From the sequence record OM870969.1: DNA of 64,000 nt. One strand, given 5' to 3'. The notes under the pieces were generated by a model that saw only the letters and a program-made list of their open reading frames with translations, did no database searches and was not told where the DNA came from. The first letter of the stretch is position 1; the number at the start of each line of letters is the position of its first letter. Source of the stretch: Pseudomonas phage vB_Paer_PsCh. This document shows positions 3,464 to 63,678 of this stretch, in pieces. The position numbers and the translations under genes are program-made.

Positions 3464-3645
3464 AGGCTACACTGAGAAACCACAATCTGCTATACATCTA
3501 CTTCCACACGTTCTCGGAAATGAATGAGTGGTTGACAGAGAACGCTGTAGATCAATGGACAGTCACGACTCTGGGCTCCGGCTATCAGGTGGCTGTTCCT
3601 ATGGACCGTGCAATGCGGGACCAATACGTCTCGGAGAGGGGTTGA
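3460..3645 (+). CDS. hypothetical protein (61 aa)
   Basis: ATGA overlap with the upstream gene. Confidence 0.35.
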   Translation: MKATLRNHNLLYIYFHTFSEMNEWLTENAVDQWTVTTLGSGYQVAVPMDRAMRDQYVSERG

Positions 3646-3670
3646 CACGAACACAAGGTGATGCTAAACT
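3642..3670 (+). promoter_or_regulatory. sigma70-type promoter (TTGACA-17-TAAACT) for primase/helicase
   Basis: TTGACA at 3642-3647, 17-nt spacer, TAAACT at 3665-3670. Confidence 0.5.
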
Positions 3671-3698: not shown

Positions 3699-5561
3699 AT
3701 GTCCAAAATGACCGTGGCCCAAATTGCGGCTATGCACGGTATCGATTTGTATTCTGACCACAAGACCGCTTGTCCCCAATGCCGGAAGAAAGGCGCGGAC
3801 AACAGCGGAGACAACCTGAAGGTTTATGGGACGGATCGTAATACCGGGGAACACAAAGGTGCCTATTGTTGGGCGTGTGGGTACACCTTGCTCTCTGAAG
3901 AGCAGGAAAGAGACGCCCGGGGAGAAGACGAAGAGGAGTGGAATTTCGTGGGAACTGAATTTAACGCAGAGATCAACGCTCAAATTAAAGAGCAGTGCTC
4001 GTATGATCCGCGTGGTTATCGTGGCCTGTCCAAGGAAACTTGCCAGTATTTCGGAGTGCTACATGGTTTCGACCCGGAGACTGGCGAGATTGCAACTCAG
4101 CTATATCCTACTACTACTAATTACGAACTCACTGGTTACAAACAGCGGATCATGCCGAAGAACTTCTCTGAGCCTATCGGAGAGACAGGTAAGGATTGCG
4201 AGCTTTTTGGTCAGTTCCGGTTCAAGAATAGCAACAGCAAGAAGGTGCTTATTGTAGGCGGTGAGGTTGACCAGCTATCAGCATTCCAGATGCTCAAGGA
4301 GTATGACGACCGGCGAGCAGGCGGTAAGAGTGATTATGAACCGACTCCAGTGGTCAGCCCTACTATCGGTGAGAGTGGGGCATGGAAGCAGCTACAGGCT
4401 CAGTATGAGTGGCTAGACCGGTTCGAGCAAATCATTCTCTGTTTCGACAGCGATGACGCAGGACGAGAGGCAGCAGACAAGGCCGCCGATAAGCTTCCGA
4501 AGGGCAAGGTGTTCATGATGGAAATGAACCGTAAAGACCCTAACGAGTATTTGAAAGCTGGGCGTCAATCGGAGTTTGTCAGTGCATTCTATCGAGCCCG
4601 TACATGGACCCCTAGCGGTATTGTAGGGTCTGATGCACTCGACGCTCGAATGTATGAAGCTGTTCAGGTTGAGAAGATTCCTCTGCCACCGTTCGCTAAG
4701 AAGCTCCAGAAGGCTATGGCGGGAGGCATCCCTTTGGGCCGGATTGTGAATATCGGCGCTGCATCGGGAATGGGTAAATCTACTGTAGTGGACGAGTTCA
4801 CTCTGTTCTGGATTTATAACTCGCCTCATATGCCGGGTACTGTGACTCTGGAATCGGACTGCGGGGAATACGCAATCAAGCTGCTGAGCCGGAAGGTAGG
4901 TGAGAAGGCAGATTTGTACGAGACTGTTGAAGAGAAAGTGGCGTTCCTTGATCGGCATCGTGATGCTCGCTACGACTTGTGGCACAAAGAAGATGGGAGT
5001 CCTCGCTTCTATCTGATCGATGACCGAGACGGAAGCCTAGCAGCCCTCAAGGCTCAAATCGAGCAACTGATTATTCAGTTTGAGTGCCGTGTTATTATTC
5101 TGGACCCGCTTCAGGATATTCTGGACGGATTGAGCAACGAAGAGCAGTCGGTATTCATGCGCTGGCAAAAGGGTATGACCAAGAGCCACCGAGTGACGTT
5201 CATCAACATCAACCACGTCCGTAAGAGTGGTGGTGGTCAGAAGGCTAACTCGGCAGGTGCTGAACTGTACGAAGAAGATTTCCAAGGGTCTTCGTCCATC
5301 TTCAAATCTGGTGCAGCTAACATCCTGATGTGGCGGAACAAGGACGCGGAGAACGAGTTCGAAAAGAACCTGATTAACGTGAAGCTCTCTAAGTGCCGAT
5401 GGACTGGCCGCACTGGAATGATGGGCAATTGGTACTACGACGTTGAGACTCATACGATCTGGGACTTGGACGACTATCTGGACCGATATCCTGACAAGCG
5501 CCGTGAGTATGAGGCTTGGATGGCTCAGAAGGAAGAGGAAGGCCGAGACACGGAATACTAA
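3699..5561 (+). CDS. DNA primase/helicase (zinc-finger-TOPRIM-DnaB-like)
   Basis: N-terminal CPQCRKKG...CWACG zinc finger, central TOPRIM-like acidic region, C-terminal Walker A GAASGMGKST and DnaB-like helicase motifs. Confidence 0.85.
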   Translation: MSKMTVAQIAAMHGIDLYSDHKTACPQCRKKGADNSGDNLKVYGTDRNTGEHKGAYCWACGYTLLSEEQERDARGEDEEEWNFVGTEFNAEINAQIKEQCSYDPRGYRGLSKETCQYFGVLHGFDPETGEIATQLYPTTTNYELTGYKQRIMPKNFSEPIGETGKDCELFGQFRFKNSNSKKVLIVGGEVDQLSAFQMLKEYDDRRAGGKSDYEPTPVVSPTIGESGAWKQLQAQYEWLDRFEQIILCFDSDDAGREAADKAADKLPKGKVFMMEMNRKDPNEYLKAGRQSEFVSAFYRARTWTPSGIVGSDALDARMYEAVQVEKIPLPPFAKKLQKAMAGGIPLGRIVNIGAASGMGKSTVVDEFTLFWIYNSPHMPGTVTLESDCGEYAIKLLSRKVGEKADLYETVEEKVAFLDRHRDARYDLWHKEDGSPRFYLIDDRDGSLAALKAQIEQLIIQFECRVIILDPLQDILDGLSNEEQSVFMRWQKGMTKSHRVTFININHVRKSGGGQKANSAGAELYEEDFQGSSSIFKSGAANILMWRNKDAENEFEKNLINVKLSKCRWTGRTGMMGNWYYDVETHTIWDLDDYLDRYPDKRREYEAWMAQKEEEGRDTEY

Positions 5562-5621: not shown

Positions 5622-8336
5622 ATGCAACAACGGTTTGAAACAATCGAGCAATACCTCGAATGGATGGGAAATAACAATTTCACTAATATGACTTGGGATA
5701 TCGAGTCTACGGGCCTGCTGGACGAATCGTCCATCGATTACACTGCAAGCCCCTACAAGATCAAGCCCAGCTACAGTCATCACTGTATCGTAGTAGAAGA
5801 GCACGGCGGTAACATTCTGGCGTTCTACGATGGCCCCACTTACATCTTCGACGGTCGAGAGTACACTGAGAAGCTGCCGAAAGCATCTTCCATGCTACAC
5901 ACTGAAGAAGTTGTGACTCTCAAGGACTACACTCCGGTAGAGTATATTCACCTGCCGCTGAAAGAGTTCAAGAACTATGTGCTCAAGCGCAAGATCAAGC
6001 GCGTAGTGGCTCACAACATGATTAACTTCGACCTTATGTCGATGAAGCTTGTGGAAGATATGGACTTTACTATCGGCGTCGAGCACAGGGATGGCGGTCT
6101 GACTACGTGGTCTGCTGACACTTGGATGGGCAAGCAAGTGGTATTCGACGATACCCTCGTTATCTCCAAGACTTGTAACCCTGACCTGTTCGGCGGTCAC
6201 AGTCTGGATAAGCTGTCTCGTCGTGCAGGTGGTGACACCAAGATTGACTTCCGTAAGCATTTGGCACCGGATGTTCGATTCCTCGACTTCGCAGCCGATA
6301 TGCTCTACTACTGTATCTATGACGTAAAGGCGAACACCGCTGTATGGCATTGGTTGCAGGACCACGAAGATTACCAACTGTCCGACCGTGACAACTACAT
6401 CAAGAATTGGCTGTCCCCGATTCAGTTGGAGAAGAAGGTTGCAGAGATCATCACCTATCAGGAGCACCGAGGGTTTGTTCTGAATGTTGATCTCTGTGAA
6501 AAAGCTGTGAAAGACTTGGACGCCAAGATGGAAGAGCGTCGGGCCCGGGTGGAACCTGTGCTTCCTCCTCGACCGGCAACCAAGAAATTCATGGCAGACT
6601 ACACTCCACCTGTTCGACAGTTCAAGAAGAACGGGGAGATCACCACTTACCTACAGAAGTTCATTGAAAAGATCGGCGCTCAATTGAAAGAGGGCGACGA
6701 CAGAACCATGATCTTTGAGGGTAAGGAGTACAAGCTGCCTCTCCCGGCAGACGTACCGCTGAAGACGGAAATGCCTGCTAAGATCGGGGACACAACTCAC
6801 ATCAAGCAATGGCTTATGGGTGAGTTTGGTTGGATTCCATCAGAGTGGAAAGAGACTGATCTGACTGTGGATCAGAAGAAGATCAAGCTTCCGATGGAAA
6901 ACATCGTTGCTAAGATCGATCGCTGGCTGGATGTAACGTATAGCACAGCGTACAAGGAAGAGCGGCTGGACGGGTTCGGGGATTACATGAAGATCACCCC
7001 TCGTAGCACCCGCGCGTATGTACGTCAGAGGTTGATTGATCGTGCAAGCAAGGGGGGCTGTAAGGTTCTCACTAACCCTAGCTTCACAAAGGGCCAAGAG
7101 AAAGAAATGTGTCCAGACCTCGAACGCATTGCAGAACAGTTTCCGTTCGCGAAGGATGTGATTGAGTACCTGACCTTTAAGCACCGGCGAAGCGCAATCC
7201 TCGGTGGCGGCATGGACTGGGACGAAATGGAGGATGGAGAGGAGCCGGAAAAAGGTTACCTTGCAAGCATTCGTCAGGACGGCAGGATTCCCACGCCTGC
7301 TGACACTTGCGGGGCTGCTACTAGCCGGATGAAGCACCGGAAGGTTGCTAACGTTCCTCGGATCACCTCGTTGTACGGGGCTGAGCTTCGAGAGTTGTTT
7401 GGGGTTGGAGATGGGTTCTTCCAAATTGGATACGACTTCGATTCCTTGGAAGCACGTAAAGAGTCGGCCTACTGCGATCAGTACGATCCGACAAAGGAAT
7501 ACTGTAAGTCACTCATGATGGAGAAGCCATTCGACGTTCACACGATGATGGCTAAGCGTATTTCCGAGATTATCGGTCGTCAATTTAACCGGTCTCCTGC
7601 GAAAAACGTAAAATACGGGTGTACGTACGGTGCTCAAGCTGGTAAAGTGGCAAAAACCATTGGTGCCGATTTGCAAACGGGTCAACTGGTATTCGATGCG
7701 TTCTGGGATGCAGCATTCCCATTGAAAGCACTGAAGGATGACCTAACCAAGCAGTGGGAGGCCAACGGTAAGAAGTATATTGTTGGAGTGGACGGTCGCC
7801 GAGTTCCTACTCGTTCGGCTCACGCTATCCTGAACAGCTTGTTCCAGAGTGGCGGTGTTATCTGTGCTAAACGTGCTATGGTGATTCATGACCAACTGCT
7901 GGAGAAAGAAGGTCTGAAGGTTGACTTTTTCAAAGAAGACTGGAAGAACAAGCCGGAATTCTGCCAACAAATGATCGCGTACCACGACGAAGCGCAGTTG
8001 GAAGTAACCGCCAAGTCGGTGAGCTTCAAGATGTTCCCTTGGTCCCTAGTAGGCGGCAAGCCGGAAGGGGAGAAGGAGCGAGAGGCAGCCGAGAAGGAGT
8101 TGAAAGCTCTAGCTCAGGCTTACAAGGACGAACAATTGGCTAGCACTGGCAAGGTGTGGAGTGATATCGCACACTACAGCAAAGGTGAAGGCGGGGTGTT
8201 TGTAGCTTACTGCCGCGCTGGAGAACTTGCCACGAAGGCCGTGAGAGCTGCGGGAGAGTTCTACTCTACTCCTCTGGTGCCTATCGAGCTGACCGCTGGC
8301 TACATCGTTGGTCGATCTTGGAAGGATTGCCACTAA
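5622..8336 (+). CDS. DNA polymerase, family A (Pol I/T7-like) with 3'-5' exonuclease domain
   Basis: 904 aa. Exo motif WDIESTGL; motif B RSPAKNVKYGCTYGAQ; motif C YHDEAQLEV. Confidence 0.9.
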   Translation: MQQRFETIEQYLEWMGNNNFTNMTWDIESTGLLDESSIDYTASPYKIKPSYSHHCIVVEEHGGNILAFYDGPTYIFDGREYTEKLPKASSMLHTEEVVTLKDYTPVEYIHLPLKEFKNYVLKRKIKRVVAHNMINFDLMSMKLVEDMDFTIGVEHRDGGLTTWSADTWMGKQVVFDDTLVISKTCNPDLFGGHSLDKLSRRAGGDTKIDFRKHLAPDVRFLDFAADMLYYCIYDVKANTAVWHWLQDHEDYQLSDRDNYIKNWLSPIQLEKKVAEIITYQEHRGFVLNVDLCEKAVKDLDAKMEERRARVEPVLPPRPATKKFMADYTPPVRQFKKNGEITTYLQKFIEKIGAQLKEGDDRTMIFEGKEYKLPLPADVPLKTEMPAKIGDTTHIKQWLMGEFGWIPSEWKETDLTVDQKKIKLPMENIVAKIDRWLDVTYSTAYKEERLDGFGDYMKITPRSTRAYVRQRLIDRASKGGCKVLTNPSFTKGQEKEMCPDLERIAEQFPFAKDVIEYLTFKHRRSAILGGGMDWDEMEDGEEPEKGYLASIRQDGRIPTPADTCGAATSRMKHRKVANVPRITSLYGAELRELFGVGDGFFQIGYDFDSLEARKESAYCDQYDPTKEYCKSLMMEKPFDVHTMMAKRISEIIGRQFNRSPAKNVKYGCTYGAQAGKVAKTIGADLQTGQLVFDAFWDAAFPLKALKDDLTKQWEANGKKYIVGVDGRRVPTRSAHAILNSLFQSGGVICAKRAMVIHDQLLEKEGLKVDFFKEDWKNKPEFCQQMIAYHDEAQLEVTAKSVSFKMFPWSLVGGKPEGEKEREAAEKELKALAQAYKDEQLASTGKVWSDIAHYSKGEGGVFVAYCRAGELATKAVRAAGEFYSTPLVPIELTAGYIVGRSWKDCH

Positions 8337-24480: not shown

Positions 24481-25467
24481 ATGCAATTCAATATATCGAA
24501 GCAACTATGGGTAGCTAAAAGCGAGCGGAAGGGCGACTATAAAGGGACGCTTTTGGCATACATGTCTCAAGTGGACTTCAATAAAGATGGTAGCTTGGCT
24601 GCCAGCTTCAAGAAAAAGCAGCAGACTGGTATGAGCTGGGCAGGTAAGAATGCCGAGACTTGCTTCATAGACAACATCCCTGTCTCGGGGCATTTCATCG
24701 GGGACAGTGTTGAACGCTGGGTCACTGAGAACAAATATTTCCGTGTGACGGACCCTAGGGGCTTTGTTCTAGAGGTTCCTACCGGGAATATCTCGACCTT
24801 GCTCTACAACTGCACAGTAATCAAGGGAGTTATTCAAGAGCCTTGCGTGTGGGTTCGGATGGGCTCTCAGCACGTTCTACTGCCGGAAGGCTCCTCTCTC
24901 TACAAAGAAGCTGTAAGCTTCGTGGAGCGAAAAGAGTCGGCCAAAACTGTTAAAGATATGGTTGCAGGGGATCGATGCACTCTTCTTAGCTACGGGACAG
25001 AGGAGAAACTAGAGGCTATCTACCTCGGACAGGTGAAGATCACTTGGCACCTCCTAGCTAAAAAGGGCCGGTACTCTAGCCGAGGGTGGGGTGGAGGTCG
25101 GTGGGGTTACCACCATCTAGAGAGGGAACTAGATAGAAAAGAATTCACTGAGAAAGATTCGAAGTGGGTTAGTGTGTTCGCTAAGCCGGTAGGAAAGCGG
25201 TGGAGTATCCATTTTATCCTGTCTCCAAAGGCAACCGACATTCAATCTGGAAATGTACCGGATGAACTTCAAAACCTCGACCTAGTGAATGGTGTAAAAT
25301 GGGAGTACAACGAGAAAGACGACCGCCCATCTTCCTATTACTCTGTACCGGATAGGGTAGTCAAGTGCATCAGTGTAGACGACCCTTCATGGGACGATCT
25401 GCACAGCTACAAGGAGGTGAGGTGGACCCGGGAATGGACCGTGGTTGGTGCGGAGTGGAGAAAATAA
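24481..25467 (+). CDS. hypothetical protein (328 aa)
   Basis: RBS GAGGAGGGAAG. Confidence 0.5.
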   Translation: MQFNISKQLWVAKSERKGDYKGTLLAYMSQVDFNKDGSLAASFKKKQQTGMSWAGKNAETCFIDNIPVSGHFIGDSVERWVTENKYFRVTDPRGFVLEVPTGNISTLLYNCTVIKGVIQEPCVWVRMGSQHVLLPEGSSLYKEAVSFVERKESAKTVKDMVAGDRCTLLSYGTEEKLEAIYLGQVKITWHLLAKKGRYSSRGWGGGRWGYHHLERELDRKEFTEKDSKWVSVFAKPVGKRWSIHFILSPKATDIQSGNVPDELQNLDLVNGVKWEYNEKDDRPSSYYSVPDRVVKCISVDDPSWDDLHSYKEVRWTREWTVVGAEWRK

Positions 25468-25489
25468 AACCCCTATTATTTTTAGAATT

Positions 25490-25512
25490 GCCCGGCTCTT
25501 GCCGGGCTTTTT
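25490..25512 (+). terminator. rho-independent terminator
   Basis: GCCCGGCTCTTGCCGGGC hairpin followed by TTTTT. Confidence 0.6.
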
Positions 25513-25691
25513 ATGCCCGGGGCTTATTTTCAAATTATTTTTAGATTTCTGGGAGTTTCGGCCAATATGGGCAATATGAAATTTCTCAGGAAAAGGCTCA
25601 GAATGCTCGTATAAGAGCCGTTCGAGTGTAGGTATGGTGAGCTACTACTTAGCCGTAGAAGGACAGTGTAACGCTTAATAGGAGGGTTAGA

Positions 25692-25865
25692 ATGAAGATT
25701 GACAACGGTGGCGAATATGCGTATTGGCTGGCGGATATCAAAGAGTTTGTTTCTCAGATGGATGCCACAGAGATCGAGAAGAGGGCTTGTATAGCATACT
25801 TAATTAGCTGGTATCAGCGAAGAGTACTGCACAGAATTAAACGGGAGGAATACGAGGCGATCTAA
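25692..25865 (+). CDS. small hypothetical protein (57 aa)
   Basis: Strong RBS TAGGAGGGT 6 nt before the ATG. Absent from the ORF track because it is under 60 aa. Sits inside the iteron region. Confidence 0.35.
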   Translation: MKIDNGGEYAYWLADIKEFVSQMDATEIEKRACIAYLISWYQRRVLHRIKREEYEAI

Positions 25866-26000
25866 GCTAGGGACCGGATGGATTTTTAGGGACTGGATAG
25901 ATTTTCACAGACTGCAAAATTGAGAACTGGGCAGATTTTTAGGAACTGGACAGTTTTTCACAGAAGGGGATTTTTCTACAGAGGAATTTCCCCTGAAATT
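25866..26000. repeat. iteron-like direct repeats, (A)ACTGGNCAGATTTTT(A/C)(G/A)G-type, at least 6 copies
   Basis: Copies: GACCGGATGGATTTTTAGG, GACTGGATAGATTTTCACAG, AACTGGGCAGATTTTTAGG, AACTGGACAGTTTTTCACAG, AAGGGGATTTTTCTACAG, GGATTTCTCAGAAGG. Spacing is about 18-22 bp. Confidence 0.6.
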
Positions 26001-26021
26001 TAGCCGGATTTCTCAGAAGGG

Positions 26022-26080
26022 CGGATCGTTAGCAGGCTATCTAATTGGTTAGCAAGCTACCTTTAATCGTTAGCACACTA
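26022..26080. repeat. three direct repeats of GTTAGCAnnCTA, about 20 bp apart
   Basis: CGTTAGCAGGCTA, GGTTAGCAAGCTA and CGTTAGCACACTA. Confidence 0.55.
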
Positions 26081-26429
26081 ACTAAAAATTCCTAGGACGG
26101 ACCTCAGTTGGCACGAACGTTGCAAGCCCGCACCAGTTTCCCGGGCAGGCGTAGGCCTCGACTATCCGTCGTGAAGGCGATATGTAGTTGGGGACTCGCA
26201 CCCCGCGTTTAAGATGCGCCCATTCTACTATGACAGTTCACTTTGTCAACATTCTTTTTATGGCACAGGTTTTGCAATTGCAATTAGAGTGCCAACATAA
26301 ATTTCAGGCTCCTCCGGTGTTTATCTCCGGTGCTCGGCTTCCAGCCTGCGTTGCCCGCATGCCTATGATTATACACAAGCCAGAAAAGAAGACAAGCAAA
26401 AATATAGAGAAAAATCTACATAAAGCCGG

Positions 26430-26458
26430 TTGACACGTTCTTTTTATATAGGCACAAT
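26430..26458 (+). promoter_or_regulatory. candidate sigma70 promoter (TTGACA-17-CACAAT)
   Basis: Perfect -35 but weak -10; lies ahead of the SprT-like gene. Confidence 0.35.
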
Positions 26459-26493
26459 GAGCCCACATTCAACGGAACGGCAGGTAAACAGCC

Positions 26494-26967
26494 ATGCTAC
26501 ATAGTGAAGCCCGGGAGATCGCACTACAGGAAATGGACAAGTGGAGCCTCCTTGAGCAAGGTTGGAAATTCTCGTTCAACCTGCGGTTGAAGAGGGCTCT
26601 AGGGCGGTGCAATTACGCTAAGAGGCTCATAGAACTCAGCTACGATTACGTAGCTAATAACGGGCTTCCCGCAGTACTGGACACCATCCGCCACGAAATA
26701 GCACATGCTAAGGCAGGTCCGCACCATGGGCATGATTCTGTATGGAAAGAGTGGTGCGGATTGATTGGCGCTAAACCTAATCAGTACGCCAGTACAAAGG
26801 ACAAAGTAGTCGACTTTCCTTGGCGGCTGGCGATCCGGCACGAAGATGGCACATTAGAGCCGCTGAATCATTTCGGTTTCAGGCGGACCAACATGGCGAG
26901 AAAACAGGTACGCGGGCGTCCTGAGACGCTGGGCCGTCTAGTTTGGGTGAAGAACGAAAATAATTGA
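26494..26967 (+). CDS. SprT-like zinc metalloprotease
   Basis: SprT N-terminal region FNLRLKRALGRCNY...IELS and zinc-binding HEIAHA. Confidence 0.6.
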   Translation: MLHSEAREIALQEMDKWSLLEQGWKFSFNLRLKRALGRCNYAKRLIELSYDYVANNGLPAVLDTIRHEIAHAKAGPHHGHDSVWKEWCGLIGAKPNQYASTKDKVVDFPWRLAIRHEDGTLEPLNHFGFRRTNMARKQVRGRPETLGRLVWVKNENN

Positions 26968-26977
26968 GAAAAAGATG

Positions 26978-27009
26978 TTGACAGCTTAGGCCATTCCTGT
27001 AGAATGGCC
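26978..27009 (+). promoter_or_regulatory. early promoter cassette copy A (TTGACA-16-TAGAAT) with 21-bp palindrome GGCCATTCCTGTAGAATGGCC
   Basis: TTGACAGCTTAGGCCATTCCTGTAGAATGGCCCTCAAGCA. The palindrome (26989-27009) overlaps the -10. Confidence 0.7.
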
Positions 27010-38309: not shown

Positions 38310-38569
38310 GTTAGTCTGCACCGTCAAGGCGAAAGCCTTACAGCATGAGGCTTGTAGGAGGTTTTAGAGGCATATGCGATTAGCATAGGATGTTGGTTGT
38401 TTTAGGTAGATTTTGGGTATAACCCCTTTCCGCGCTACCATTGTCGGTTGTGATGTTAAGCGACAGCTTACATCCGCTCTCATTTTGCAATGAGAATTGC
38501 GTACAGTTCATCATGCGCCTCAGAAGTGACTTCACTTTGCATGCGGAAGCATGCTATAGTATACCCTGT

Positions 38570-38584
38570 GATAGCTCCGCTATC
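38570..38584. promoter_or_regulatory. GATAGC-N3-GCTATC palindromic site 2
   Basis: TGATAGCTCCGCTATCC. Confidence 0.5.
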
Positions 38585-38743
38585 CCGTTTTGCATGGCAC
38601 ACGAATTGCATAAGCATGACAAGGGTAACCCTCGAAAGCGGAGCTTTCAAAGTGTGGGCTTTCCCTTTATTATAATTGCGACTCAATTTCGCGACACCAG
38701 AAAACTTGACTCAAGCCCAGTAAATACGTTAGACTAAAAGATG

Positions 38744-38759
38744 GATAGCTGCCGCTATC
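38744..38759. promoter_or_regulatory. GATAGC-N4-GCTATC palindromic site 3, 30 nt upstream of the homing-endonuclease start
   Basis: GGATAGCTGCCGCTATCA. Confidence 0.5.
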
Positions 38760-38789
38760 AATAGATCAAAATTCACACAAGGAGACCCA

Positions 38790-39443
38790 ATGACAAGCAA
38801 CATTCATGCCAATAATGCCCGCTCGCCTATCGGCGAAGAAATGCACATCCATTACGCCAAAGGCGTATTCCATGCCATGCGACAGCGATGCAATCCCAAA
38901 GACCGAATCTATACCGGGGCTTCGCTCTGCGAAGAGTGGTCTAAGCCTAGAGCCGCCGGATTCGAATCGTTCTATGAATGGGCGGTCTATGAGGCTGGTT
39001 ACTCAGACGGCTACCAACTGGACAAGGACATTCTATTCCCGGGAAACAATTTGTATGCTCCGCATACGTGTGCGTTCATTCCGCAGTACATGAACAAACT
39101 CTTCACAAACTGCGGTAGCACTAAGCGAGTCAATGCAAAACCCAAGCCAGCTAGGACACTCCCGCTAGGCGTGCAGATAAACTACTACAGAAAGAACGGT
39201 AACCCATCCTACACTTCACAATGCCGATCACTAGGTAAACAGGCAACACTAGGTTCGTTCCGAACCGCAATGGAGGCACACGTTGCTTGGCAACATGCCA
39301 AGATAGCAGCCATCCATGAATGTATCGATCTCTATCAGATGGAAGACGTTCACAGTGTGGATATCATCCAAGCCTTGCTTGGAAGGGTAGACCAATTGTG
39401 GAAGGATATTGATGCGGGCAGGGAGACCATTTTGTTGCAGTAG
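38790..39443 (+). CDS. HNH (HNH_3-type) homing endonuclease with C-terminal AP2 DNA-binding domain
   Basis: N-terminal FHAMRQRCNPKDRIYTG...CEEW...FESF...GYQLDKDILFPGNNLYAPHTCAFIPQYMN (HNH_3 pattern). C-terminal GVQINYYRKNGNPSYTSQCRSLGKQATLGSFRTAMEAHVAW (AP2-like). RBS AAGGAGACCCA. Only plus-strand gene in the 2-kb switch region. Confidence 0.6.
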   Translation: MTSNIHANNARSPIGEEMHIHYAKGVFHAMRQRCNPKDRIYTGASLCEEWSKPRAAGFESFYEWAVYEAGYSDGYQLDKDILFPGNNLYAPHTCAFIPQYMNKLFTNCGSTKRVNAKPKPARTLPLGVQINYYRKNGNPSYTSQCRSLGKQATLGSFRTAMEAHVAWQHAKIAAIHECIDLYQMEDVHSVDIIQALLGRVDQLWKDIDAGRETILLQ

Positions 39444-39516
39444 CATCTCGCCTAGCGTCTCGACGCAGTAGTCTCCCATGGGCCAGCGGCTACCCCTCTT
39501 AGAGTGCGAGTAATCC

Positions 39517-39531
39517 GATAGCGAAGCTATC
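39517..39531. promoter_or_regulatory. GATAGC-N3-GCTATC palindromic site 4, downstream of the homing endonuclease
   Basis: CGATAGCGAAGCTATCA. Confidence 0.5.
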
Positions 39532-39645
39532 AAATGTATATGCATATTCCATGCCAACATGTGGAAAGATTTTACCCGGCAGGGCGGGAGTCCGTTGGCA
39601 TTAGTTTTGCATAGCTTAGCTGTCGCTAAGAAGGAAAGACCACGG

Positions 39646-39775
39646 CCACCCATTATTTTGGGATTACGTGAGGTTAGGTATGCCTAGTGGGTTCGTGGTT
39701 AAGTAGCTCGGAAATAAATCCATAACTGGCAGAAGGCGAACCAGCAGAGGGCAGGCCCGCTCCCTCCATTATTTT
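39646..39775. repeat. direct repeat CC(A/T)CCCATTATTTT x2 (39646-39659 and 39761-39775)
   Basis: GGCCACCCATTATTTTGGG and CCGCTCCCTCCATTATTTTCCC. Confidence 0.4.
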
Positions 39776-48401: not shown

Positions 48402-49264
48402 AGGCGTTCCGCCTTGGAGTATTCAACCGGAATGACAGTCAGCGCTTCGTGCTCTTTTTGAGGGAGCGTATCCGAGGTGTAGATGCATCCGAAGGAATCC
48501 AGCAAGCAGTCGATACCCTTACTGAAGATTCCATGAGTGACGAACAGGTCAGGGAGCACTTTACTGTACTCTCTTAGGGCCTTAGACACGCTTCGGAATG
48601 TAGCACCTCCGTCACAGATATCGTCGATCACCAGAAGCGGAAGTTCAGGATCGATATCCGAAGGATTCAGAATTTCAAAGCCTTCGATTTTACCGGTCTG
48701 GAGATCGCGCTTCTTATTGCAACGAATTACAGCGGCTGCTCCGGCCTTCTTTGCAAAATCCTCGGTCCGCTTTGTTGCTCCGATATCAGGGGCTACGAGT
48801 TGATATTGCTCCCACTCTGAACGGCTCAGTAGGCCACCGAAGACCGAAGATTGACGGACAACTTCGACGTTGTTAATCAGGTGCAGAGTTGCGTCGCTGT
48901 GAGGGTCCACAACGATAACTCGGTCATATCCGGCAGAGTTCAGCATGTTTGCAAACACTTTCAAACTGAAGGCGTCGCCCGGATTGCACCGACGGTCTTG
49001 GCGAGCATACGGGACATAACCCAGCAGAAGAGTCATGTGCGGATTAATCATTTCTGCTCGGATCGCCTCGGTGACGTTGAGAAGAGCCATGATATCATCA
49101 CTATTCTGAATCTGAGCTTTAACGTTTACGAACGCATGGCTTTCGATGCCGCCCACATTAACGCCCACTTCGCCGCCCGGGAACGTCCACACTTTTGCCT
49201 CTTGCCACGGACGGCTCATAACACCTTCCATTTCCTGAAGGCAACCTACAGCATAACTAATCAT
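48398..49264 (-). CDS. ribose-phosphate pyrophosphokinase-like (Prs family; possibly Adps of an NARP1-type pathway)
   Basis: Motifs LVAPDIGATKRT and DDICDGGATF (PRPP-binding). Confidence 0.65.
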   Translation of the reverse strand: MISYAVGCLQEMEGVMSRPWQEAKVWTFPGGEVGVNVGGIESHAFVNVKAQIQNSDDIMALLNVTEAIRAEMINPHMTLLLGYVPYARQDRRCNPGDAFSLKVFANMLNSAGYDRVIVVDPHSDATLHLINNVEVVRQSSVFGGLLSRSEWEQYQLVAPDIGATKRTEDFAKKAGAAAVIRCNKKRDLQTGKIEGFEILNPSDIDPELPLLVIDDICDGGATFRSVSKALREYSKVLPDLFVTHGIFSKGIDCLLDSFGCIYTSDTLPQKEHEALTVIPVEYSKAERL

Positions 49265-49273
49265 ACATCCTCC

Positions 49274-49690
49274 TCACAGTTTCACAGAGAAGCGATTCCG
49301 CATTGCTTCCATCGTGCTCTCGGGAACATCGTGTACAGACTTATTCCCATGACGATTCTCTACAATCAGAGAGATAACAGTGTAGCCAAACTCTTCAGCC
49401 ATGTCAATGTATGGTGCTACCTCTCGCTCCCGGGTACTAGTATTGGATACGATAACCGCATCTAGTCCTATCTCCATAGACCGTCGCGCTTTGTCCATGC
49501 ACTTTTTGTGAGATTCAACTACCCTCTCAGCTTTCCACACATACTTGCCGAACTCCATTTGGTAATCGTCCGCTTCGCAGATAGACGCCTGCCGGCCTGA
49601 CTCCCAAGTTTTGTTATACAGAATCTCGGCAAGAGAGGACTTCCCGGAGCCCGGGAGTCCTCGAATGATATACATGATCTTTTCTTGCAT
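49274..49690 (-). CDS. P-loop kinase (polynucleotide-kinase/AAA_33-like)
   Basis: Walker A GLPGSGKSSLA. 138 aa. Confidence 0.5.
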   Translation of the reverse strand: MQEKIMYIIRGLPGSGKSSLAEILYNKTWESGRQASICEADDYQMEFGKYVWKAERVVESHKKCMDKARRSMEIGLDAVIVSNTSTREREVAPYIDMAEEFGYTVISLIVENRHGNKSVHDVPESTMEAMRNRFSVKL

Positions 49691-49700
49691 ACTTCCTCCT

Positions 49701-50618
49701 TTAAATTCGAGCCATATCGAAGTAGGTTTCGATCAGAAGTCGTCGCTGTGCATCGGTCATTTCTGAGAACCGAGCCTCATCCACTTCATTTACCAAGAAG
49801 TCTACCAGAGGATAGAACTCTTCGTCAAGCGTCTGCTTGAATCCAGCCGGGTCTTGGTACATCGCATTGACCTTCTTACTACCCATCCTCATGATAAACT
49901 TCTTGCCGAGGTAGTGAGTCGACTTGCACTTCACTGTCCCTAGCCCTGTTTGTACCATGTAACCTTCTTTCTCACAAGAACTCAGAAGACCCTTTGCATG
50001 TTCCCAGCTACACTCTATGTGCTCTGGACGAAGAATCTTTACAGAACTGTGGTCCGTTACACCTAGGGCGTGAGAGTCAAGAATATATTCTGAAAGCTGG
50101 CCCCCAGTGAAGATATCGCGGATACCGATCAAATATGCCCCTTCTTCTTCCTCGACAATGTGAGGGTCGTCTGGAGAGCATATCTCGAAGTTATATGTGA
50201 AGCCTGCGATGTAATCATCTGGGTTATTCGACACATACTTCTGACCAAGGGCAACGTAATCGCTGGTCAATGACCCCGTAGTACTGAAGATAAGGGAGCC
50301 ATTGTGCTTAGTCACGGAGAACATGAATCCATTCACTTTCTCAATCAGCCGCACACGGAATTTAGGATGGAGGAAACTCCCAGCACCATTCTCTCCCAGA
50401 TTAAACACCTTCTCGAAGGGGCGTACAATACAATCACCGGAGTGCTGGTCAAATACATGACCCCGTGCCTCCAGAAGGAGCGGATGCTCATTCCACAGGT
50501 TCTCGTAGAACACCTTCCGGGCATACTTTATAATCGACATACCGTTGAAGTGCTTAACAGTCACCAGCTTATTAGCGATCAGGTCTTTGTACATTGCAAT
50601 GTTGAGATTACCTTCCAT
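49701..50618 (-). CDS. RNA ligase-like nucleotidyltransferase (Rnl2-like)
   Basis: Motif I EKVNGFMFS (KxNG), motif IV EGYMVQ, motif V VKCK. Confidence 0.5.
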   Translation of the reverse strand: MEGNLNIAMYKDLIANKLVTVKHFNGMSIIKYARKVFYENLWNEHPLLLEARGHVFDQHSGDCIVRPFEKVFNLGENGAGSFLHPKFRVRLIEKVNGFMFSVTKHNGSLIFSTTGSLTSDYVALGQKYVSNNPDDYIAGFTYNFEICSPDDPHIVEEEEGAYLIGIRDIFTGGQLSEYILDSHALGVTDHSSVKILRPEHIECSWEHAKGLLSSCEKEGYMVQTGLGTVKCKSTHYLGKKFIMRMGSKKVNAMYQDPAGFKQTLDEEFYPLVDFLVNEVDEARFSEMTDAQRRLLIETYFDMARI

Positions 50619-50629
50619 CCTACTTCTCC

Positions 50630-51037
50630 TTATTTCAATTCGACAATTGGGCAGAATTTAGCCTTCTTTGCCTTTAGATACGATACCAGAATCCCATCCT
50701 TGCTGGACGATTTACTCGACATAAAGCGAGAGAATCGGTAGAAAACCCACACGCCATAAAAGACGGCGATGATTCCAATCCATACAAACCCCATGACAGC
50801 CAGAGTCCCACCTAGAACATATCCGGTAAGTGGACCGAGAGCCAGAGAATACAATACAGAGCCTACAACAGCAGCGAGCGCTACAACCGTTAACGCCAGC
50901 CACACGACGAGGAATACTGTCTGCCAGAAATAAGAGCAGAGGGTTACAATTTGCCAACCGCTTGAGATAGCCGAATAGACCGGGGTCTCGAACGTACGAT
51001 GGAGCCGCATATGCCACGAATTCTTATCAATCTTCAT
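50630..51037 (-). CDS. membrane protein (3 TM)
   Basis: Hydrophobic helices throughout. Confidence 0.5.
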   Translation of the reverse strand: MKIDKNSWHMRLHRTFETPVYSAISSGWQIVTLCSYFWQTVFLVVWLALTVVALAAVVGSVLYSLALGPLTGYVLGGTLAVMGFVWIGIIAVFYGVWVFYRFSRFMSSKSSSKDGILVSYLKAKKAKFCPIVELK

Positions 51038-51309
51038 GCTTGTTCCTCCGGGAAGATGTTGAAGTTAAGTACGTTATGCTCTTCAAGTTCCATGGAGGCT
51101 ACCATCTTATAACCTCCGAGCTTGTGAACGATCTCCAGTATACTCTCAATAGAGAATTTGTCAACATGCTGCTTCATCAGATTGGAGATTCGGCTCTGAT
51201 GGGTTCCACACCGCTCTGCCACTTCCCGTTGAGTCAGCCCAGACTGAGTGATGTAGTGTGCAGCAACAACCATTACAGTTTTCTTGAAATCCTTGACCGG
51301 ATCATTCAT
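51034..51309 (-). CDS. helix-turn-helix (XRE-like) transcriptional regulator
   Basis: LTQREVAERCGTHQSRISNLMKQ matches an HTH pattern. Confidence 0.5.
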   Translation of the reverse strand: MNDPVKDFKKTVMVVAAHYITQSGLTQREVAERCGTHQSRISNLMKQHVDKFSIESILEIVHKLGGYKMVASMELEEHNVLNFNIFPEEQA

Positions 51310-61427: not shown

Positions 61428-61501
61428 TGCCGCTTCGTTTAATGGTAGGACGCCAGACTTTGAATCTGGAGATGATGGTTCGATCCCATCAGCGGCTGCC
61501 A
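61428..61501 (+). tRNA. tRNA-Gln (anticodon TTG)
   Basis: Cloverleaf: anticodon arm CCAGA-CTTTGAA-TCTGG; T-arm GATGG-TTCGATC-CCATC; encoded CCA; U1:U72 mismatch. Confidence 0.6.
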
Positions 61502-61582
61502 AATGTAGTAAAAGAACATTCACCCGACAAGGAATGTGTCTCGCTCAGAGGACAGCGAGTAATAAGTGTCCTCCAGAATTAA

Positions 61583-61659
61583 GGGTCGGTGAGCGTAATT
61601 GGCAACCTACTGGATTCCAAATCCTCGTATTCTCTGTTCGAATCGGAGTCGGCCCGCCA
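61583..61659 (+). tRNA. tRNA-like element, anticodon arm not resolvable (possible pseudo-tRNA)
   Basis: Good acceptor (GGGTCGG/TCGGCCC), T-arm CTCTG-TTCGAAT-CGGAG and encoded CCA, but no clean anticodon stem by eye. Confidence 0.35.
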
Positions 61660-61667
61660 AATTAGTG

Positions 61668-61696
61668 TTGACAGGAGAGAAGGTCTCCTGTATAGT
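61668..61696 (+). promoter_or_regulatory. sigma70 promoter (TTGACA-17-TATAGT) with inverted repeat in spacer
   Basis: GTTGACAGGAGAGAAGGTCTCCTGTATAGT. Confidence 0.5.
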
Positions 61697-61706
61697 GACG
61701 CCAATT

Positions 61707-61781
61707 GCTCGTATAGTGTAACGGATGCACAACGGTCTTCTAAGCCGTAAGGTCTAGGTTCGAATCCTAGTATGAGCGCCA
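61707..61781 (+). tRNA. tRNA-Arg (anticodon TCT)
   Basis: Acceptor GCTCGTA/TATGAGC; anticodon arm ACGGT-CTTCTAA-GCCGT; T-arm CTAGG-TTCGAAT-CCTAG; CCA. Confidence 0.65.
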
Positions 61782-61788
61782 AATTAGA

Positions 61789-61864
61789 TGGACGGAAGCT
61801 AAAGTGGATAGGCATCGGGCTTTTAACCCGACTATAGTGAGTTCGAGTCTCACCCGTTCAACCA
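61789..61864 (+). tRNA. tRNA-Lys (anticodon TTT)
   Basis: Anticodon arm TCGGG-CTTTTAA-CCCGA; T-arm GTGAG-TTCGAGT-CTCAC; CCA. Confidence 0.65.
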
Positions 61865-61869
61865 ATTTT

Positions 61870-61957
61870 AGTGAGTAAATCAGATAGGTTCTGAGGCTCC
61901 CTGCTAAGGAGTACGTCTGCTAACGCGGATGTGGATCGAGACCACTGCTCACTGCCA
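61870..61957 (+). tRNA. tRNA-Ser (anticodon GCT), type II long variable arm
   Basis: 88 nt. Anticodon arm GCTCC-CTGCTAA-GGAGT; acceptor AGTGAGT/GCTCACT; CCA. Confidence 0.55.
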
Positions 61958-61976
61958 AAATAAGTGATTTTAAGTG

Positions 61977-62005
61977 TTGACAAACTGAATTTTTCATGTT
62001 TTAAT
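61977..62005 (+). promoter_or_regulatory. sigma70 promoter (TTGACA-17-TTTAAT)
   Basis: GTGTTGACAAACTGAATTTTTCATGTTTTAAT. Confidence 0.45.
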
Positions 62006-62040
62006 ACACTTATCAGATCAAGAAATACTTAGCGAGTAGC

Positions 62041-62120
62041 CCTGAGTAGGTCGGGAACTAGTCTAGAAAACTAGGCCACTGTGATGAACGGTGAGGGTTC
62101 AACTCCTTTACTCGCTGCCA
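62041..62120 (+). tRNA. type II tRNA (Ser-like; anticodon loop CTAGAAA parses as AGA; uncertain)
   Basis: Acceptor AGCGAGT/ACTCGCT, 3-bp D stem CCC/GGG, anticodon stem CTAGT/ACTAG, T-loop TTCAACT, CCA. A34 would be unusual. Confidence 0.4.
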
Positions 62121-62126
62121 AATTTT

Positions 62127-62211
62127 GGCCCTGTGGTGGAATTGGTATACACATCAGTCTTAGAAACTGACGCCGAGAGGATTGAGGGTTCAAGTCCCTC
62201 CGGGGCCACCA
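62127..62211 (+). tRNA. tRNA-Leu (anticodon TAG), type II
   Basis: Acceptor GGCCCTG/CGGGGCC; anticodon arm TCAGT-CTTAGAA-ACTGA; T-arm AGGGTTCAAGTCCCT; CCA. Confidence 0.65.
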
Positions 62212-62220
62212 AATTAAGAA

Positions 62221-62297
62221 TCTCTTTTGCTATTTGGTAAGGGTTCGAGTCCCTTCCCGGCTGCTATGGTCGGTCTACGGTGGCCAAATAGTGAGAG
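62221..62297 (+). ncRNA. structured RNA candidate: ~15-bp outer stem (TCTCTTTTGCTATTTGG / CCAAATAGTGAGAGA) enclosing an orphan T-arm-like hairpin AAGGGTTCGAGTCCCTT
   Basis: Inverted repeat read directly from the sequence. No acceptor, D or anticodon arms, so not a tRNA. Confidence 0.4.
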
Positions 62298-62368
62298 AGC
62301 TAGGGGACATGACGAAGGTAGCGCTGCTTTCCGACCTCCCCGGCGCTATAAAAGTTATCATGAAGGGG

Positions 62369-62396
62369 TTGACAAACAAGAAATTCATGATAATAT
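62369..62396 (+). promoter_or_regulatory. sigma70 promoter (TTGACA-16-TAATAT)
   Basis: GGTTGACAAACAAGAAATTCATGATAATAT. Confidence 0.5.
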
Positions 62397-62421
62397 AGGT
62401 ACATAGAGTAACAAACAATAC

Positions 62422-62497
62422 GGCCAGATAGCTCAATTGGTAGAGCCCCCGACCGATAATCGGGTGGTTGAAGGTTCAAGTCCTTCTCTGGCCACCA
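62422..62497 (+). tRNA. tRNA-Ile (anticodon GAT)
   Basis: Acceptor GGCCAGA/TCTGGCC; D-arm GCTCAATTGGTAGAGC; anticodon arm CCCGA-CCGATAA-TCGGG; CCA. Confidence 0.75.
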
Positions 62498-62506
62498 AAA
62501 TTTATA

Positions 62507-62585
62507 GGCCCATTAGCTCAGTCTGGACTAGAGCAAGCCCCTGTCTAGGGCAAGGTCGCCGGTTCGAATCCGGCATGGGTCGCCA
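62507..62585 (+). tRNA. tRNA-Asp (anticodon GTC)
   Basis: Anticodon loop CTGTCTA; T-arm GCCGG-TTCGAAT-CCGGC; CCA; long D-loop. Confidence 0.55.
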
Positions 62586-62589
62586 ACAA

Positions 62590-62676
62590 GGTCGTTGTAG
62601 AGATAGATGGCTACTATCATCCGGCTGTAACCCGGACGCCATAGGCTAGAGGTTCAATTCCTTCCTTCGACCACCA
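62590..62676 (+). tRNA. tRNA-Tyr (anticodon GTA), type II; acceptor-stem base imperfect in my parse
   Basis: Anticodon arm TCCGG-CTGTAAC-CCGGA; long variable arm; TTCAATT T-loop; CCA. Confidence 0.45.
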
Positions 62677-62679
62677 AAT

Positions 62680-62760
62680 AGCGAGAGCGTTAAGACTGGC
62701 TGGCGCTGTCCCTCGGCTCATAACCGAATACAAGTGGTTCGATTCCACCTCTCGCTTCCA
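62680..62760 (+). tRNA. tRNA-Met/Ile2-like (anticodon CAT)
   Basis: Perfect acceptor AGCGAGA/TCTCGCT; anticodon loop CTCATAA; T-arm GTGG-TTCGATT-CCAC; CCA. 81 nt with atypical D-arm. Confidence 0.45.
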
Positions 62761-62994
62761 AATTGCACTCCGAGGAACCCTAAGTGGTGGGTTCAGTGTC
62801 GCTACCTATCTCGGTAAGGGGAAGCGCCTAAGCTGGCACGGGTAATTGAGTAGCTGTGATAAGCTACTGGCAGCCAGTATAAATCGTCCGGCTCGGGCCC
62901 GTTATAGCTCCTAGATTTGAATTAGATGCTGTAAGCCATAGGAGGTGATCCAGTATCTCCCGGAGGGGCCCGGGTTAACAACCTCATGAATTTA

Positions 62995-63071
62995 GCCCGC
63001 GTTGGCCGAGAGGTTTAGGCGGCGGATTGCAAATCCGTCTCACATCGGTTCAAATCCGATACGCGGCTCCA
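62995..63071 (+). tRNA. tRNA-like (anticodon loop TTGCAAA = GCA, Cys?), acceptor pairing imperfect
   Basis: T-arm ATCGG-TTCAAAT-CCGAT; CCA; anticodon arm GCGGA-TTGCAAA-TCCGT. Confidence 0.35.
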
Positions 63072-63081
63072 AGGTTTATAT

Positions 63082-63157
63082 TGGGATGTAGCTCAGTTGG
63101 CAGAGCAGGGAGCTGTTAACTCTCAGGTCGCAGGTTCGAGCCCTGCCGTCCCAGCCA
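63082..63157 (+). tRNA. tRNA-Asn (anticodon GTT)
   Basis: Acceptor TGGGATG/CGTCCCA; D-arm GCTCAGTTGGCAGAGC; anticodon arm GGGAG-CTGTTAA-CTCTC; T-arm GCAGG-TTCGAGC-CCTGC; CCA. Confidence 0.75.
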
Positions 63158-63220
63158 ATTTCCAAAAGAGACTCTTCGCTTCAGAAGCAGAGTCGAACGC
63201 CCGATACGGGCCTTATTCAT

Positions 63221-63298
63221 CTCCTCGTAGCTCAGTCTGGTTAGAGTGTCGGATTTGGAATCCGAAGGTCGAAGGTTCAAATCCTTCCGGGGTGACCA
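63221..63298 (+). tRNA. tRNA-Pro (anticodon TGG)
   Basis: Anticodon arm TCGGA-TTTGGAA-TCCGA; T-arm GAAGG-TTCAAAT-CCTTC; CCA. Confidence 0.6.
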
Positions 63299-63304
63299 AT
63301 CAAA

Positions 63305-63380
63305 GCGGGTATAGCTCAGTTGGTAGAGCGTCTGCCTTCCAAGCAGTTCGTCGTCGGTTCGAGTCCGTCTATCCGCTCCA
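63305..63380 (+). tRNA. tRNA-Gly (anticodon TCC)
   Basis: Acceptor GCGGGTA/TATCCGC; D-arm GCTCAGTTGGTAGAGC; anticodon loop CTTCCAA; CCA. Confidence 0.65.
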
Positions 63381-63386
63381 AACAAA

Positions 63387-63463
63387 GGGACTGTAGCTCA
63401 GAAGGTTAGAGCGGTGGATTGAAATCCCACAGGTCGGGCGTTCGATTCGCCCCGGTCCCACCA
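63387..63463 (+). tRNA. tRNA-Phe (anticodon GAA)
   Basis: Acceptor GGGACTG/CGGTCCC; anticodon loop TTGAAAT; T-arm GGGCG-TTCGATT-CGCCC; CCA. Confidence 0.65.
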
Positions 63464-63469
63464 AATAAA

Positions 63470-63545
63470 GCAGTTATAGATTAATTGGTTAAATCGCCAG
63501 ACTTTCAATCTGGTGTTCCGGGTTCGATCCCCGGTAACTGCTCCA
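63470..63545 (+). tRNA. tRNA-Glu (anticodon TTC)
   Basis: Perfect acceptor GCAGTTA/TAACTGC; anticodon arm CCAGA-CTTTCAA-TCTGG; T-arm CCGGG-TTCGATC-CCCGG; CCA. Confidence 0.65.
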
Positions 63546-63611
63546 ATCAAGTCCAAGCCGGAACATTCCTCCGTATGTGCTTTCAGCCGGCTTGGCATTA
63601 TTCGTGTGGAG

Positions 63612-63678
63612 ATTGTGTAGCCCGGATGCTGCCTTTCGGTTGTGACCCGATTGTTGGGGTTCGAGTCCCCGCCTCCAA
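63612..63678 (+). tRNA. tRNA-like element (T-arm GGGG-TTCGAGT-CCCC, CCA end), body not resolvable
   Basis: Acceptor TGGAGAT/GCCTCCA partly pairs. Possibly a degenerate tRNA. Confidence 0.25.

Follow-up and report, generated by a model that had tools for sequence, protein, structure and literature searches.

What does the field of short direct repeats at positions 25,866–26,090 do in Pseudomonas phage vB_Paer_PsCh? We analyzed a 64,000-nucleotide stretch of this genome (OM870969.1), referred to here as the window, which comes from a Pakpunavirus, a PAK_P1-like Pseudomonas aeruginosa myovirus. Phages PAK_P1, PaP1, JG004, and their relatives, whose receptor is O-antigen, are leading therapy candidates against P. 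aeruginosa. The field is best explained as a cis-acting DNA element whose action depends on protein binding, rather than as a gene, a terminator hairpin, or a packaging site. An earlier note on this DNA had offered a replication origin, a packaging (pac) site, or a transcription-factor array; a protein-binding array, for an origin or for regulation, fits best, and the pac site falls away. This particular element, read as an array of oriented protein-binding repeats within the control region of a phage, appears to be undescribed.

The field lies in a conserved non-coding region of ~0.65 kb, immediately before a cluster of immediate-early promoters, and comprises the following elements.

25871–25965, plus strand: four clear, oriented 22-bp T-tract repeats starting at 25871, 25890, 25924, and 25943 (sequence reading and repeat tools).
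25962–26021, plus strand: two to three degenerate T-tract units reaching ~26021, for example GAAGGGGATTTTTCTACAG at 25962 and GCCGGATTTCTCAG at 26003 (stretch covered by repeat families D10 and I17).
Within 25962–26021: an imperfect 13-bp inverted repeat with arms at 25965–25977 and 25982–25994.
Within 25962–26021, plus strand: the pair TTTCACAGAAGGG and TTTCTCAGAAGGG, spaced 53 bp apart.
26028–26082, no strand: three imperfect 14-bp palindromes, GTTAGC-NN-GCTAAC, at 26028, 26048, and 26069 (20 and 21 bp apart).

The 22-mer family has the consensus GAACTGGACAGATTTTTACAGA, and every copy in the window is on the plus strand. In each copy, a T5 tract is framed by two half-sites of the ACAG type with a 10-bp period (ACAG-N6-ACAG in a profile of 29 copies). 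With four clear copies in a single orientation, the array has the three or more direct repeats of 17–22 bp typical of an iteron-type origin. Where at least six repeats of roughly 20 bp had been claimed, we count four clear copies; the figure of six holds only if the degenerate units are counted in. Nor is the spacing regular, as had been thought: the four copies form two adjacent pairs (19 bp within a pair, 53 bp between pairs), giving copy-to-copy distances of 19/34/19 bp here and 18–53 bp in relatives. As the T tracts are out of helical phase in the window and their phase varies between lineages, phased static bending was dropped as an explanation. The three GTTAGCAnnCTA repeats reported about 20 bp apart are real: this sequence has three exact matches in the window, only at 26028, 26048, and 26069, each forming one of the GTTAGC-NN-GCTAAC palindromes.

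The repeats are confined to this locus. Searching the 64-kb window with a degenerate 14-mer, ACTGGRYAGWTTTT, gave three exact matches, each of them inside 25892–25958. A looser T-tract core, searched across all 93 kb of the PAK_P4 genome, gave four plus-strand matches, all in the gap, and a single minus-strand match that is likely due to chance. A scan of bacterial genomes for three-copy arrays was uninformative, returning unrelated organisms among the matches listed.

Conservation of the field was then compared with that of its neighbors. A DNA search with 1.1 kb around the field gave matches in 127 Pseudomonas phage records, most of them Pakpunavirus (PAK_P1, PaP1, JG004, C11, and PAK_P4) at 90–97% identity. 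The window was aligned with PAK_P4, MAG1, LCK69, EM, and XD2, and the alignment was scored by segment. In MAG1 and LCK69, the field is 92–100% identical versus 64–67% for the adjoining 57-amino-acid open reading frame (ORF) at 25692–25865; in phage EM, the respective values are 79–88% and 36%. The stretch of degenerate units (25962–26021) keeps 95–100% identity in PAK_P4, MAG1, and LCK69. Because field identity exceeds ORF identity, and the ORF product is only 53–63% identical in amino acids within the genus, the non-coding field is, on the evidence of these alignments, under stronger constraint than the ORF beside it.

More distant phages were reached via the 328-amino-acid neighbor of the gap and via conserved DNA blocks. 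The same gap architecture is found in XD2, Kassivere, and KoPa-4 (P. putida) and in ventosus; in PN09, phiPsa374, Kremar, and PPSC2 (Otagovirus and relatives); and in two IMG/VR genomes, SYP, and PAK_P3 (Nankokuvirus). Nankokuvirus, Otagovirus, and unclassified phages of P. putida and P. syringae carry the 22-mer itself in the syntenic gap, as 2–4 strict copies whose orientation is always the same. It is thus present in at least three named genera (Pakpunavirus, Nankokuvirus, and Otagovirus) plus unclassified relatives. The repeats were expected to recur in related phages, and they do, even though the flanking 328-amino-acid protein is only 27–36% identical across the phages that share them. 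Our profile draws its 29 copies from 10 lineages with P. aeruginosa, P. putida, P. syringae, and P. fluorescens as hosts, and all 29 are on the plus strand. The underlying pattern search gave 30 matches, namely these 29 copies and one chance match in the terminator tail of a 103-kb relative. G7 and G11 are present in 30/30 matches and the T run is invariant, all positions that the search pattern itself fixes; A18 is present in 29/30. By these comparisons, the repeats are a cis-element under strong selection rather than a product of chance.

The small ORF immediately upstream had been proposed as the source of the cognate binding protein. It is present as described, with a ribosome-binding site (AGGAGGG), but that role does not stand up: besides its low identity within the genus, the genera that keep the repeats carry unrelated small ORFs from other PHROGs or from none. 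The window has PHROG 8175, PN09 has a CxxC protein of PHROG 18044, and Kassivere and XD2 have a 77-amino-acid ORF whose translation is hydrophobic and membrane-like. As the small ORF is non-homologous between genera, it is not a conserved partner of the repeats.

The stretch that follows the array is also lineage-specific, carrying RTTAG-N4-CTAAY palindromes, GAGAATCATTCTC-type repeats, or, in PAK_P3, TGTAGCACGTCA repeats. The RTTAG-N4-CTAAY versions are found in XD2, Kassivere, ventosus, and an 89-kb IMG/VR relative. Separately, we observed arrays of Fur-box-like palindromes (GAGAATCATTCTC, AATGAGAATCATTCGCATT) in the same gap of Otagovirus and SYP, and also in the non-coding repeat region of a T5-like phage (Pantoea phage AAS21), beside a DnaA-box-like TTATCCACA, and in the terminal repeat of a jumbo phage (Klebsiella phage Muenster). 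These arrays were located at 4400–4500 of locus L025 (PN09), 1330–1450 of L029, 1280–1400 of L028 (SYP), 2940–3110 of L183 (AAS21), and 780–1100 of L182 (Muenster).

Transcript data from relatives place RNA ends at the array or the palindromes. In the ONT-cappable-seq supplement for PAK_P3, termination site T022 is at 50625 on the plus strand, between array repeats 2 and 3, and forms the end of several transcription units; read-through ends lie between 50630 and 50897, and the start-site table has no entry on either strand from 48439 to 51049. Therefore, in PAK_P3, rightward transcripts end in or just after the array, after including its first two repeat units, and no start is seen in the gap. 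The PAK_P4 record adds an RNA-seq-annotated leftward RNA, as16, with a sigma70 promoter that is directed into the field, and the RNA ends at the palindromes. The window has equivalents of both.

26086–26215, minus strand: body of a ~130-nt leftward non-coding RNA equivalent to PAK_P4as16 (RNA-seq-based annotation in KC862300, coordinates rounded).
26222–26249, minus strand: sigma70-type promoter TTGACA-16-TAGAAT, matching 11/12 positions and equivalent to PAK_P4 "promoter_03", which drives the leftward RNA.

In the window, the as16 equivalent would run from ~26215 to a T5 run at ~26086, on the edge of the third palindrome. Its body is 97–100% conserved within the genus, and in phage EM the alignment shows changes mainly in loops, with one compensatory stem change. 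Single-sequence folds of the region on either strand were no better than shuffles (z about 0), and Rfam gave no match to the body. The promoter is kept in XD2, Kassivere, and the 103-kb relative. By composition, G exceeds C on the plus strand to the left of ~26050 and on the minus strand to the right of it; therefore, both converging RNAs are G-rich.

Could the repeat unit simply be an intrinsic terminator? Array RNA folds from four lineages gave no shared hairpin and U-tract, so this identity was rejected, and a terminator scan found no intrinsic terminator inside the field. Sigma70 promoters within the repeats were likewise dropped, as no −10 element lies at the right distance.

Our best reading, which we hold tentatively, is that the array is bound by a sequence-specific protein and that converging transcripts end there, in what may be a T7-style start zone for transcript-primed replication. 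Its parts differ in strength. That a protein binds the repeats is probable. A sequence-specific, head-to-tail binder is favored because the half-sites are direct, one helical turn apart, in one orientation, in several copies, and at a unique locus, and because selection on them is independent of the neighbors. A head-to-tail dimer, such as a winged-helix regulator of the OmpR/PhoB type, would fit the half-site layout, and the four to six same-orientation units and three palindromes could together assemble a multi-protein complex. Rightward transcripts from the upstream early operon would stop at this complex, as, in Pakpunavirus, would the leftward 130-nt RNA from its strong sigma70 promoter. 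The array and palindromes would thus act as a two-sided barrier, a proposal to which we give slightly less than an even chance. The complex would mark and shield a transcription-free zone, and this zone could be where a phage with a T7-type replisome starts replication, with the incoming G-rich transcripts serving as primers or R-loop formers. That the zone is a replication origin is possible, though doubtful.

The replication genes are compatible with such a scheme. A primase-helicase and a DNA polymerase are encoded at window 3699–5561 and 5622–8336. The primase-helicase matches T7 gp4 structures at E = 3e-42 and has Toprim and helicase domains as well as an N-terminal zinc ribbon (CxxC...CxxC); the DNA polymerase belongs to family A, with a DNA_pol_A domain. 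A gp4-like primase-helicase together with a family A polymerase makes up a T7-type replisome. The likeness to the primary origin of T7, where promoters 1.1A and 1.1B point into an AT-rich stretch with a primase site, may extend in Pakpunavirus to a strong promoter that would send a short RNA into a repeat field of lower G+C, ending at the field's edge. Unlike those of T7, the promoters here are of the host sigma70 type and not for a phage RNA polymerase, the leftward promoter is missing in Nankokuvirus and Otagovirus, and GTC sites are not conserved in the repeats. With iteron-type origins (lambda ori, P1, P4 ori/crr, and iteron plasmids), the field shares several direct repeats of ~20 bp in one orientation, at a unique genome position in strongly conserved non-coding DNA, beside other repeats and promoters. 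It differs from them in its irregular, non-phased spacing (iterons recur at ~21–22 bp), in having no adjacent initiator gene, in its mild AT-richness, and in carrying no skew signature of an origin.

Several points weigh against this reading. No protein can be named as the binder of the repeats, and no initiator or Rep-like gene adjoins the field. Unit spacing is irregular (18–53 bp) and not helically phased, unlike classical iterons. The region, which had been called AT-rich, is so only mildly, with 39–45% G+C against ~49% across the window; T5 tracts are present, and there is no long AT block. GC skew changes near 26–27 kb in the direction opposite to that which the usual rule predicts for an origin; the field has no origin-like inflection, and cumulative skew reaches its extreme at the terminal repeat. 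The GTC site of a T7-type primase is found in 1/4 copies (that at 25943, which reads CTGTC on the minus strand, where the other three read CCATC, CTATC, and CTGCC), and primase sites in the repeats were accordingly dropped. As for the transcripts, T022 of PAK_P3 falls at the base of a GC stem specific to that lineage, which weakens any direct link between this 3′ end and the repeats; the two may be unrelated. PAK_P3 and Otagovirus have the array but neither the leftward promoter nor as16. Finally, Kassivere, XD2, and ventosus already have an ordinary hairpin terminator ahead of the array. In the literature, the PaP1 authors relied solely on GC skew to assign a putative origin to the genome end, and no paper that we found connects these phages with sigma54, with the repeat region, or with an origin mapped by experiment.

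A role confined to regulation or insulation comes close to our best reading in likelihood. Here, a response regulator of the host or a transcription factor of the phage would occupy the repeats and control or insulate the immediate-early promoters and the small RNA, or the repeats would soak up a host regulator, with no part in replication; we regard this as possible, if on the unlikely side. The gap is dense in promoter-like and regulator-like sites, including three strict sigma54 motifs and several sigma70 promoters, and Fur-box-like arrays occupy the same place in sister lineages. In PAK_P3, an RNA 3′ end falls in the array and read-through stops ahead of the early promoter. The 22-mer layout, with its central T5 between direct AC repeats, resembles footprinted ColR sites, and more broadly the sites of the OmpR/PhoB family (ColR box YYNASNNYTTTTTSAC; pho box CTGTCAT-N4-CTGTCAT), which are asymmetric and have two direct half-sites about one helical turn apart. 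Nevertheless, the 22-mer is out of register with the ColR consensus and the pho box, its half-sites being 10 bp apart and not 11. Either the 5′ or the 3′ half aligns, never both, and with the period one base short, identity with either box was rejected. The distance from the array to a promoter also varies by lineage (~65–250 bp to the nearest sigma54-type motif) with lineage-specific elements in between, and no transcription start in the gap responds in PAK_P3.

Could the array instead act at the RNA level, as part of the 3′ untranslated region of the upstream operon? Sites for RNase E, Hfq, or another protein would then set mRNA 3′ ends or stability. The orientation of the repeats always matches the direction of transcription, and the array begins at, or within a few bases of, a stop codon in the window, PAK_P3, PN09, phiPsa374, Kremar, and PPSC2. 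The first two units are transcribed in PAK_P3, and ACAG/AUUUU fits the sequence preference of RNase E. We nonetheless consider this improbable. Most transcripts never reach the array in Kassivere, XD2, and ventosus, because a strong hairpin terminator separates it from the ORF; in the window, a terminator stands even ahead of the 57-amino-acid ORF. No conserved RNA fold was found. A sponge RNA for RsmA/CsrA was also dropped, since the 11 GGA motifs on the plus strand here are not conserved and other lineages have CTCGACAG copies, as was a type III antitoxin-like repeat RNA or CRISPR-repeat mimic, since no tandem unit of suitable length is present and the sequences show no likeness.

To the right of the array are motifs of the sigma54 type, which raise the question of whether the repeats serve them.

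26109–26124, plus strand: sigma54-type −24/−12 motif TGGCACGAACGTTGCA, a full match to the extended consensus YTGGCACGrNNNTTGCW.
26261–26294, both strands: back-to-back sigma54-type pair (family I7), TGGCACAGGTTTTGCA at 26261–26276 on the plus strand and TGGCACTCTAATTGCA at 26279–26294 on the minus strand.

The gap holds three exact TGGCAC-N5-TTGC motifs, at 26109 (plus), 26261 (plus), and 26294 (minus), all of which have the −24 GG and −12 GC elements (TGGCAC-N5-TTGCW); 0/100 shuffles reached the observed count. The whole PAK_P4 genome has seven strict motifs versus 0.35 expected. They are confined, unexpectedly, to the gap and the terminal-repeat region, and most are far from ORFs. Those inside the terminal repeat are at 38595–38610 and 39596–39611 in the window, both on the plus strand. 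The two members of the back-to-back pair differ in constancy. Every distant relative with the pair has the minus-strand member strictly conserved (EM, XD2, Kassivere, ventosus, SYP, both IMG/VR relatives, and PAK_P3), whereas the plus-strand partner decays.

The array might therefore be an upstream activating sequence, at which a host enhancer-binding protein such as PilR would fire nearby sigma54-type promoters. Perfect −24/−12 motifs do lie 150–400 bp rightward of the array, strict motifs are greatly in excess in PAK_P4, and a sigma54 promoter has been reported for Pseudomonas phage YuA. We rate this distinctly improbable. The array is found without strict motifs in Kremar and PPSC2 and the motifs without the array in SYP and the 103-kb relative, and ONT-cappable-seq gave no PAK_P3 transcription start at the motifs (none from 48439 to 51049); because of this independence and the lack of starts, we do not read the array as a sigma54 enhancer. 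The orientation of the nearest motif also flips, being directed towards the array in XD2 and Kassivere, and no enhancer-binding-protein domain was seen among the annotations examined. Tandem (N)4-6 C/G TGTC boxes of PilR resemble the minus strand of the repeat, a likeness that the consensus quoted for PilR does not support. That P. aeruginosa consensus, TGT-N11-ACA (PMC8035640, PMC6058289), was absent from the repeats on reading the sequence, and PilR sites were dropped.

An exact search for the back-to-back pair recovered the palindrome TGGCAC-N6-TGCAATTGCA-N6-RTGCCA in eight unrelated viral contigs, where ~0.02 chance matches would be expected (a rough estimate from collection size). These are IMG/VR loci L008–L012, L016, L019, and L020 (for example, 3546–5222 of L009, 2894–3271 of L020, and 5364–5648 of L019). 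Several have 3–7 sigma54-like motifs clustered in non-coding DNA, hundreds of bases from the next ORF. BLAST searches of L019 and L020 against known phages returned nothing useful. A broader proposal, which we consider rather unlikely, is that the gap and the terminal repeat are hubs that mimic targets of host global regulators (sigma54 closed-complex sites, often back to back, response-regulator-type direct repeats, and, in sister genera, Fur-box-like arrays). Virulent phages would use these hubs to park or soak up host factors during genome multiplication, or to set up silent roadblocks of polymerase around a zone of replication or DNA entry. As part of this proposal, clusters of the pair in unrelated contigs suggest a widespread, undescribed use of sigma54 sites other than ordinary gene expression.

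An injection stop like that proposed for T5-like phages is very improbable. The field would be the inner border of a first-transferred segment made up of the terminal repeat and the 12-kb early region. The gap does bound an early gene array that extends to the terminal repeat, and one repeat type of the sister lineages also occurs in the comparable non-coding region of T5-like AAS21. There are further likenesses to the large non-coding repeat region of T5-like phages: a block of about a kilobase in a virulent phage, close to both the early genes and the terminal repeat, and packed with short direct and inverted repeats of several families that resemble host-factor sites. However, the repeat sequences differ from those of the window, and the T5 region is in or next to a 10-kb terminal repeat, whereas the field is 12.4 kb from a 1.2-kb one. 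Two-step DNA transfer is not known in these phages, the genes upstream of the gap (PAK_P4 gp80–91) are also early, and transcription of the early genes runs towards the end rather than away from it.

To a pac site or physical genome terminus at the field we give almost no credence, since repeats are all that speaks for it. In the close relative C11, the 1173-bp terminal repeat has been defined by experiment; it corresponds to window 38461–39700, 12.4 kb to the right of the field, which already refutes a terminus here. The terminal-repeat equivalent is only ~80% identical to that of C11. It contains a 217-amino-acid ORF (38790–39443) with no Pfam match, and a strand switch and the cumulative GC-skew maximum are also located there.

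The array is the best-conserved non-coding signal before the early genes in at least three named genera, and therefore a testable handle on both the origin and early-gene control. If the origin reading is true, engineered phages could be built and rebooted with the array as a minimal cis element; if a host regulator is bound, it would show how infection is tied to host physiology.

The gap around the repeat array runs from the stop of the 328-amino-acid ORF (25467) to an SprT-like gene (26494), the downstream neighbor of the field, and has further features on both sides of the repeats.

25475–25548, plus strand: array A, a first set of T-rich repeats, ATTATTTTTAGAATT, GCTTATTTTC, and ATTATTTTTAGATTT (repeat family D7; relatives' sequences).
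25490–25515, plus strand: intrinsic terminator (GC hairpin and T run) closing the upstream operon after the 328-amino-acid ORF (terminator scan; annotated terminator in PAK_P4).
25692–25865, plus strand: the 57-amino-acid ORF, PHROG 8175, of unknown function, fast-evolving and not conserved between genera.
26306–26362, plus strand: the widest-conserved block of the family, CAGGCTCC..TGTTT..CTCCGGTGCTCGG, containing a TCCGGTG doublet.
26430–26458, plus strand: first sigma70 early promoter of the downstream array, equivalent to PAK_P4 "promoter_04" and followed by the SprT-like gene (26494–26967).

The 57-amino-acid ORF is the only small ORF within the gap, and its product has no Pfam domain. 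The TCCGGTG doublet reported downstream was found at 26313 and 26326. In the block that contains it, a small hairpin at 26332–26349 shows compensatory changes in three pairs, and G-U pairs favor the plus strand. We also note a conserved ATTATAC in 26306–26380, which reads as TATAAT on the minus strand, and that PAK_P3 read-through transcripts stop near the equivalent of this stretch. An Rfam scan of 25000–27000 on both strands gave nothing near threshold, the best match being the terminator hairpin at 25462–25514, and no tRNA or tmRNA was found near the field.

Array A has counterparts at the same place in Kassivere, PN09, PPSC2, and PAK_P3, with 4–5 copies of TTATTT, TTACTT, or GATATTTG. Indeed, short T-rich repeats in the same direction (3–5 copies of TTATTT, CTTACTT, or GATATTTG) precede the small ORF in every lineage; this second T-rich repeat family lies at 25475–25548 in the window, 3575–3660 in locus L024, 850–910 in L027, and 10185–10260 in L035. 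Far to the right, 14 tRNA genes are clustered on the plus strand at window 61428–63941.

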